From: Escherichia phage CMS-2020a
DNA length: 64,000 bases
Sequence record: CP054387.1
Direction: 5' to 3' (one strand)
Shown here: positions 38,055-38,896 of the stretch, in pieces
Layout of the letters: the number at the start of each line of letters is the position of its first letter
Position numbering within the stretch: the first letter of the stretch is position 1
Notes under the pieces: generated by a model
Told to the model about the DNA's origin: nothing
Databases searched by the model: none
The model's input: only the letters and a program-made list of their open reading frames with translations
Made by a program: the position numbers and the translations under genes

Positions 38055-38576
38055 TCACTCTCCTTTGATGCGAATGCCTGCTGCAATGCTGTTTATGATG
38101 CTGTCAGTGCATGGAGTAGAAAGCTGGGCATCTCCAGCAATTTTCATGACCTCAACATCCGCATATCGAATACCGAGGTGTATCAGACCGGCTATACCTG
38201 ACTTAAGTCGAACATTTTCCATAAACAGATCTTTTTCCCGCTGTTTAGCGGCTTCCAACTCCATCGACAATTTTTCCAACTGCTCTTTATGCTTCTTGTA
38301 TTCCTGATACGCGTGCCAAGACTGACCTTTGCGCACACTATCAGTGATATCAGCAACCTGCTCCGGTGTTAGCGTGGTCAGTGGCTGTGCTGGAAAAATC
38401 ATCACTTTCCCGGCATCCCAATCAAAACCCGCCTGAATTGACTGAACCTCAACTGATGGTGTTGAACCGATGCGACCAGGCGAATGAACAACGATCGTTA
38501 CATCCATATCGCGACGATGGCTGTGGTTGTTGGACAAAATACGATTCACCAACTCAGAAAATTTGGAAAATTTCAT
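38055..38576 (-). CDS. hypothetical protein
   Basis: Start at ATG 38576 (ATGA overlap with upstream stop); C-terminus AGIRIKGE shared with gene 38898-39428. Confidence 0.4.
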
Positions 38577-38896
38577 GCTGATCCCTCTTTCTCTCCCCGG
38601 ATAATTCTGTTGCACACATCCACACACTCGTCGCAGATGAAAACGGCGTCCCCAGCAATTAACTTTTTGACGGCGTACTGGGATTTGTTGCAGAAGCTGC
38701 AACAAAGTGTTCGCCTGACTGATAAGGATGGAGCGCCAGATGTCAGCCGCTCCATATCGTTCTTGCGACGCAATATCACACGGCTGAACTCAACCAGTTT
38801 CTCCGGGGATATCTCCTCCTCCGTAGCAAGCGCCTCTAATCGTTCGAGTATGTGGAAGGCTTTTTTCTGGGTAATTGCAGAATGCGATGTGGTCAT
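38573..38896 (-). CDS. ClpX N-terminal zinc-ribbon-like protein
   Basis: [33 protein letters not shown] resembles the C4 zinc-binding domain of ClpX; no ATPase domain. Confidence 0.55.

Follow-up and report, generated by a model that had tools for sequence, protein, structure and literature searches.

A predicted ClpX-type zinc-binding domain joined to a conserved helical hairpin in small proteins of enterobacterial temperate phages and phage-plasmids

The window analyzed here, a 64,000-nt stretch of Escherichia phage CMS-2020a (CP054387.1), contains a minus-strand ORF that opens with ATG at 38896 and closes with TGA at 38573-38575, giving a product of 107 aa; the peptide quoted in the preliminary description corresponds to residues 66-98 of this protein. 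An in-frame alternative ATG at 38938, used by some gene callers (P0001), would give 121 aa. We consider the 107-aa form correct because AGGAG lies 6 nt 5' of the 38896 ATG, the upstream Ea22-like gene has its stop at 38898, the MTTSH start is also found in homologs from unrelated contexts, right after an unrelated gene, and the RefSeq start call for the identical protein (WP_000213528.1) is the 107-aa form. The gene and the features recognized within and beside it are as follows:

38573..38896, minus strand: zinc-finger gene, complete, 107 aa plus stop (RefSeq WP_000213528.1; PHROG 6797)
38889..38927, minus strand: gene-junction "linker" comprising the end of the Ea22-like gene (...AAGIRIKGE and stop), the Shine-Dalgarno sequence AGGAG, and the ATG (repeat search and sequence)
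38741..38872, minus strand: N-terminal helical hairpin, aa 9-52, with predicted helices at 10-26 and 31-52 (alignment, AlphaFold2, dN/dS)
38711..38740, minus strand: putative flexible linker, aa 53-62, of low pLDDT and variable in sequence and length (alignment, AlphaFold2)
38597..38710, minus strand: ClpX-type C4 zinc-binding domain (ZBD), aa 63-100, as assigned from Pfam, PDB match, Foldseek, codon table, and alignment
38573..38596, minus strand: C-terminal tail GEKEGSA plus stop, short, variable, and acidic/polar (sequence, alignment)

The gene is part of a long run of small accessory genes on the minus strand, among them Ead/Ea22-like, DUF7446, and DUF551 genes. Its stop overlaps the start of the next gene as ATGA (38573-38576), which argues for translational coupling to that downstream gene, and the arrangement at its two ends indicates coupling to both neighbors. 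Scans for a dedicated promoter or terminator of the zinc-finger gene returned signals not above those of shuffled sequences. The ~39-nt junction is also present at 38046-38084 and 37384-37422, with 87% and 67% identity to the reference copy (family D1); the copies mark three consecutive minus-strand gene boundaries within 1.5 kb, at which the start reads MTT or MAT. Short pieces of the junction region are common to hundreds of phages.

The 5-kb surroundings of the gene are 100% identical to ~108-kb Shigella sonnei plasmids, 99.8% identical to p09EL50 of E. coli O104:H4, and 98.9% identical to Escherichia phage PhiR41_1 over 80% of the length; we assign the window to an SSU5-like phage-plasmid. 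Its other contents include unusual phage cargo in the form of full-length, host-like metG (methionyl-tRNA synthetase; 31322-33484, minus strand) and apbC (Fe-S cluster carrier; 33513-34613, plus strand), both as annotated in p09EL50. At the head of the block upstream of the Ea22-type cassettes is a DUF4942 protein of 561 aa (41493-43178, minus strand), which has a weak methyltransferase-like match in its C-terminal part. On the same strand as the zinc-finger gene and 3.5 kb downstream of it, positions 34651-35040 (minus strand) encode a HumD-family protein (219 bits against a cut-off of 120), an analog of the processed UmuD' of DNA polymerase V whose start corresponds to the UmuD cleavage site.

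Within the ZBD (aa 63-100), residues 65-100 match the Pfam model zf-C4_ClpX (PF06689) at 57.4 bits (E=1.3e-15) over profile positions 2-38 of 39, far above the gathering score of 27 bits. In a search of all PDB sequences, the top matches were entries for the ZBD of E. coli ClpX, 2DS5-2DS8 and 1OVX, with E=1e-14 for 2DS5 and 1OVX. When the domain is aligned with E. coli ClpX residues 10-50, 28 of 41 residues are identical (68%). The cysteine spacing C-x2-C-x18-C-x2-C is the same in both proteins, the predicted Zn ligands C66, C69, C88, and C91 being the equivalents of ClpX C14, C17, C36, and C39; these four residues are invariant in all 27 family members as well as in an alignment of 16 sequences in which true ClpX and two distant members are also included. 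True ClpX and the phage family further have in common L12, S15, F16, G30, I35, V40, and C43 (ClpX numbering), with K19, V24, I28, V33, E38, N44, and I47 nearly invariant across both; F68, I98, and C95 of the phage protein are the equivalents of ClpX F16, I46, and C43. An AlphaFold2 model built from the 27 family sequences has a mean pLDDT of 74, with values of 76-86 in the ZBD blocks, and its ZBD superimposes on 2DS5, 2DS6, 2DS7, and 2DS8 with an rmsd of 0.5-0.9 Å over 38-42 residues (Foldseek probability 1.00), the closest superpositions giving 0.5-0.6 Å over 38 residues. These data identify a true ClpX-type C4 ZBD, with a modeled fold of beta-hairpin plus C-terminal helix.

The NCBIfam ClpX models TIGR00382 and NF003745 recover no AAA+ module, matching at positions 4-46 of 418 and 8-48 of 414 only and scoring 42 bits (cut-off 359) and 40 bits (cut-off 371), respectively. 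Because these models match over their first ~45 positions only and far below cut-off, the protein is read as having neither an ATPase module nor a ClpP-docking loop; nothing beyond a 7-residue tail follows the ZBD, and no IGF loop was found there. The preliminary description, which had likened the protein to the C4 N-domain of ClpX and noted that it has no AAA+ module, is borne out on both counts. The 107-aa protein thus belongs to the ClpX zinc-finger domain family but is no ClpX.

Full-length relatives form ~30 clusters of 63-97% identity, all from Escherichia, Shigella, or Salmonella. Beyond these clusters only the zinc finger matches, mostly in short proteins without another Pfam domain from many environments, and also in N-terminal fragments of true ClpX; most of the 209 database matches are short proteins with PF06689 as their only Pfam domain. 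The hairpin-ZBD subfamily is limited to temperate phages and phage-plasmids of Escherichia, Shigella, Salmonella, and close relatives. Its distant members P0121 and P0127 (~40-46% identity) keep the hairpin-linker-ZBD layout, which argues that the two-domain architecture is the unit under selection.

The hairpin (residues 9-52; pLDDT about 72-86 in the AlphaFold2 model) is the best-conserved segment of the family alignment. An exhaustive phmmer search with the first 60 residues returned only 9 matches among 1.8 billion representatives. Apart from a single BAG-repeat protein of eukaryotic origin (P0122), these were family members, truncated fragments, or more distant members. Occurrence of the hairpin in other architectures is ruled out by this search, in which the BAG-repeat protein was the sole outsider. 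Kinship of the hairpin with the product of a nearby ORF (36602..36883), which also contains the motif ALATE, was likewise rejected, as the two do not align. BAG domains are Hsp70 nucleotide-exchange co-chaperones. The match between the hairpin and BAG helices 2-3 in P0122 is marginal (phmmer E=6.6e-5; hhalign probability 59.6% over 48 columns), and the Pfam BAG model (PF02179) matched 0 of 10 hairpins even at E<=10; faint matches to DUF4461 were also obtained. The BAG-like signal may be noise arising from helical composition, or it may hint at a chaperone-directed surface.

Nei-Gojobori dN/dS values were calculated for five loci in ten pairs. The whole-gene ratio is 0.3-0.6 and below 1 in every pair, with values of 0.16-0.33 for the hairpin in nine of the ten pairs and 0.33-0.73 for the zinc domain. 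The zinc-finger gene is real and under purifying selection, and within the family the hairpin is more constrained than the ZBD; since the strongest constraint falls on the hairpin, the ZBD may be the accessory part. Relative to E. coli K-12 clpX, the ZBD codons show 63% nucleotide identity. At 28 conserved residues, the codon is the same in 13 and different in 15, including a switch of serine codon family, and synonymous sites are saturated relative to the host gene. Recent capture of host clpX is ruled out by the nucleotide identity and the 15 changed codons. The codon divergence and saturated synonymous sites, combined with the whole-gene dN/dS, indicate that the likeness to ClpX has been maintained by long-term selection.

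These results also bear on the reading of the ORF as a decaying captured fragment of clpX or as a chance, functionless ORF. The highly mosaic setting of the gene, crowded with small ORFs, speaks for such a reading, but full-length homologs down to about 40% identity keep the two-domain architecture, no pair reaches a whole-gene dN/dS of 1, and the codon differences from clpX indicate an old lineage. The gene also has a Shine-Dalgarno sequence and predicted translational coupling on both sides, and of 5426 complete E. coli genomes, 220 (~4%) have DNA matches to it, about half of the matches being on plasmids and half on chromosomes. We regard this reading as extremely improbable, and effectively refuted by the conserved architecture, the codon divergence, and the dN/dS values.

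The greater constraint on the hairpin speaks for another alternative, in which the zinc ribbon has been reused as a generic protein-binding or structural module and the hairpin acts on a target outside ClpXP, such as another chaperone or a replication/recombination factor. Short proteins with PF06689 alone are common across bacteria and metagenomes, and the domain is used outside ClpX, a ClpX-type zinc domain being found also in cyanobacterial sigma factors (PMC11119718). The weak likeness of the hairpin to BAG helices 2-3 and the faint DUF4461 matches would fit such a role. However, the 68% identity to ClpX and the invariant F16 equivalent exceed what zinc ligands and fold would require, the Pfam BAG model matches no member, and the BAG signal comes from helical, charge-rich sequence and from one repeat protein. 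On balance we consider reuse as a generic module unlikely, while taking it seriously.

The zinc-finger gene is carried by three unrelated backbones: SSU5-like phage-plasmids, D6/P1-like phage-plasmids (90-95 kb), and P2-like prophages. In the P2-like prophages its place is just 3' of replication gene A, within the variable stretch that precedes the portal gene, and in one of them (L015) it stands nearly alone between gene A and ogr/portal. A conserved partner gene, as in a toxin-antitoxin, effector, or defense pair, was sought and rejected, as the neighbors differ among the SSU5-like, D6-like, and P2-like contexts; the 173-aa protein encoded downstream in the window, for example, is unrelated to the 169-aa protein encoded downstream in P2-like loci, and only generic Ead/Ea22-type cassettes recur near the gene. 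The family moves as a single-gene cassette among phage backbones. That a single-gene cassette works in unrelated backbones with no conserved partner implies a target supplied by the host. The ~39-nt junction is probably a recombination linker by which Ea22-region cassettes are shuffled among lambdoid, P2-like, and phage-plasmid genomes.

Among PLSDB records with a match to the protein, 120 of 128 are non-mobilizable. In the P2-like loci L002-L007, L011, and L012, genes for a ParM/StbA-type actin-like ATPase and the plasmid-stability protein StbB (at about 5400-7700) directly follow gene A, a hint that the gene-carrying P2-like elements may be maintained as plasmids. If they are, all three backbones would tie the zinc-finger gene to prophages kept outside the chromosome. 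Two close relatives of the window's phage-plasmid, NZ_CP107165.1 and NZ_CP099775.1, carry an ISEcp1-blaCTX-M-15 insertion in the variable accessory region that holds the zinc-finger gene, at a distance of a few kb from it; these insertions indicate that the accessory region is a landing site for resistance genes too.

Lambda O binds a hydrophobic region around ClpX F16/I46 that is also bound by SspB, RssB, and trigger factor, and its degradation requires the ClpX ZBD (PMC7804408); RssB docks on the ZBD (PMC7226468). In the phage family, F68 (the F16 equivalent) is invariant in the 27 sequences, and position 98 (the I46 equivalent) is I, V, L, or A in 26 of them, with P0028 alone having Gly. 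As judged from these alignments, the F16/I46 ligand patch is kept. The isolated ZBD is reportedly a stable dimer bearing the primary sites for lambda O and SspB, a finding attributed to Wojtyra et al. 2003 and Thibault et al. 2006. The KLIAGP beta-hairpin motif is invariant in true ClpX and reads KLIAGD, RLMLTGD, or KLIITGE in the phage family, in which ClpX Y34 is replaced by F or C. Together with the faster evolution of the ZBD, this variation suggests that the ligand specificity of the phage domain may have drifted from that of ClpX.

The best explanation of these features, which we put forward tentatively and at less than an even chance, is that the 107-aa protein is a decoy or anti-adaptor that competes with ClpX for ligands of its N-domain. 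The retained F16/I46 patch makes this idea plausible, as does the lack of a motor domain, which would suit a decoy role toward ClpX-docking proteins; competition with ClpX for ligands would follow from the detachment of the ZBD from the unfoldase. The suggestion in the preliminary description that a free N-domain mimic could titrate adaptors or substrates is compatible with the kept patch and with the portability of the gene, which points to a host-supplied partner. The protein would be small, soluble, and two-domained, with its N-terminal hairpin tethered by a flexible linker to a C-terminal ZBD that would bind Zn and dimerize as in ClpX. The hairpin would probably add a second oligomerization or target-binding surface. 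The ZBD would show ClpX's docking patch to the adaptors SspB, RssB, UmuD, and trigger factor, and would present the same patch to N-domain-dependent substrates such as lambda O and MuA. N-domain-dependent proteolysis and remodeling by ClpXP would be selectively dampened, with substrates recognized at the pore (ssrA tags) largely spared. The carrying element could benefit from stabilization of its own ClpXP-sensitive proteins, such as a replication initiator, an antitoxin, or the HumD/UmuD'-like protein encoded 3.5 kb downstream in the window; the benefit could equally be an altered host stress physiology.

In the host, UmuD' is degraded after being tethered to the ClpX N-domain by UmuD, and a ZBD decoy could therefore stabilize the HumD protein encoded in the window. 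More broadly, the protein might be a portable mimic of the ClpX docking domain that soaks up RssB, SspB, UmuD, lambda-O-type initiators, and MuA as a selective anti-adaptor of ClpXP, such that chosen proteins (for instance sigmaS, UmuD'/HumD, or phage replication proteins) are stabilized or ClpX-dependent rivals such as Mu are excluded, with the hairpin providing avidity or engaging a second, possibly chaperone-related, target; this fuller picture strikes us as rather doubtful. The faster evolution of the ZBD (dN/dS 0.33-0.73) than of the hairpin, and the variation at KLIAGP and Y34, weigh against a decoy, as does the stronger constraint on the hairpin, which may leave the ZBD as the accessory part. 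So does expression: stoichiometric titration needs high levels of the protein, and no dedicated promoter was seen.

The same biochemistry could serve another beneficiary. The gene could be lysogen-protecting cargo, its ZBD blocking superinfecting phages that need the ClpX N-domain for remodeling of the Mu transpososome or for lambda O turnover. Its P2-like location would suit such a role, since the P2 region between gene A and the portal gene, home of tin and old, is a known hotspot of anti-phage cargo. A tie between ClpXP and phage defense also exists through degradation of the CmdTAC antitoxin (bioRxiv 10.1101/2024.02.24.581848). However, PADLOC-DB 2.0 defense models gave no match at E<=0.1 to the gene, three of its neighbors in the window, or four neighbors in P2-like loci. 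In addition, the P2-like copies directly follow the early replication operon in the same orientation, and the window copy belongs to a long operon of accessory genes of early type; each of these settings points to lytic or early expression and away from expression in the lysogen. We consider lysogen protection improbable.

The protein could instead act on ClpX itself, through heterodimerization of its ZBD with the ClpX N-domain or docking of its hairpin on the AAA+ ring, which would either block the N-domain or create a new adaptor whose hairpin delivers cargo. Conservation of the C-terminal helix of the ZBD (V40 and C43 invariant, N44 nearly so, I46/I47 mostly hydrophobic) is compatible with such pairing, and the ClpX ZBD is known to dimerize on its own (PMC5415555). 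The hairpin-linker-ZBD layout resembles that of tethered adaptors such as SspB, and a hairpin that is the best-conserved part of the protein is as expected of a specific binding surface. In the ClpX hexamer, however, N-domains pair at very high local concentration, a situation that should disfavor exchange with free monomers, and no conserved phage cargo gene lies beside the cassette. We rate action on ClpX itself as distinctly unlikely.

In existing annotation, the RefSeq name of the identical protein WP_000213528.1 is "ClpX C4-type zinc finger protein," and PHROG 6797 holds the protein without an assigned function. Many GenBank copies (~107-120 aa) are named "carboxylate--amine ligase"; a Pfam search detected no ligase domain in the 107-aa protein, and for this reason the name looks like a propagated annotation error. 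No functional study of phage-borne stand-alone ClpX zinc-finger proteins came up in full-text searches of the literature. The domain-based name, and the fact that stand-alone ClpX-type zinc fingers are common, were already known, and both were missed by the preliminary description, as was the hairpin's place as the most constrained part of the protein ahead of the zinc finger. What is new is the obligatory conserved hairpin, the cassette behavior across phage types, and the evidence of long-term selection.

Compared with the ClpX N-domain, the phage ZBD is a homologous domain with the same Cys ligands, 68% identity, the same predicted fold, and equivalents of F16, I46, and C43. It differs in being C-terminal instead of N-terminal and in being preceded by a family-specific helical hairpin, and the phage protein departs from ClpX in having neither the AAA+ ring nor the IGF loop and in its varying KLIAGP and Y34 positions. 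Other stand-alone PF06689 proteins (RefSeq; PHROG 6797, 12435), which are widespread in bacteria, phages (e.g., Caulobacter phage Cr30), and metagenomes, likewise have the ClpX zinc finger as their only recognized domain, whereas the phage subfamily is defined by its conserved hairpin; no tested function was found among these stand-alone proteins.

Small modulators of bacterial proteases offer a further comparison. IraP and IraM block RssB, lambda RexB protects lambda O and antitoxins from ClpP proteases, T4 PinA acts against Lon, and SPO1 Gp53 acts on ClpC. IraD, too, is an anti-adaptor (PMC7226468). The phage protein would have in common with the Ira proteins, RexB, PinA, and Gp53 the selective protection of substrates by a small protein; it has no sequence relationship to them, however, and the docking-domain mimicry proposed here is not their mechanism. 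SspB has a substrate-binding domain joined to a ClpX-binding module by a flexible linker. As in such tethered adaptors, the phage protein combines two modules and a flexible linker, with one module in the ClpX N-domain network, but where SspB bears a ZBD-binding peptide, the phage protein bears the ZBD itself, and no substrate-binding fold is recognizable in the phage hairpin. If the picture of a portable ClpX mimic is true, it would to our knowledge be the first example of a mobile element that uses, in trans, the substrate-docking domain of a protease.

The stability of lambda O, MuA complexes, antitoxins, and UmuD' is set by ClpXP, as is, through RssB, that of the stress sigma factor. Should the protein have no contact with ClpXP, the ClpX zinc ribbon would still be a reusable module, and its hairpin partner would call for explanation. 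If the decoy hypothesis is true, a mobile decoy of ClpX's docking domain would offer a simple means of rewiring ClpXP control that can pass between genomes; carriers of the gene include ~108-kb phage-plasmids from Shigella sonnei and from E. coli O104:H4, and some carriers also bear CTX-M-15.
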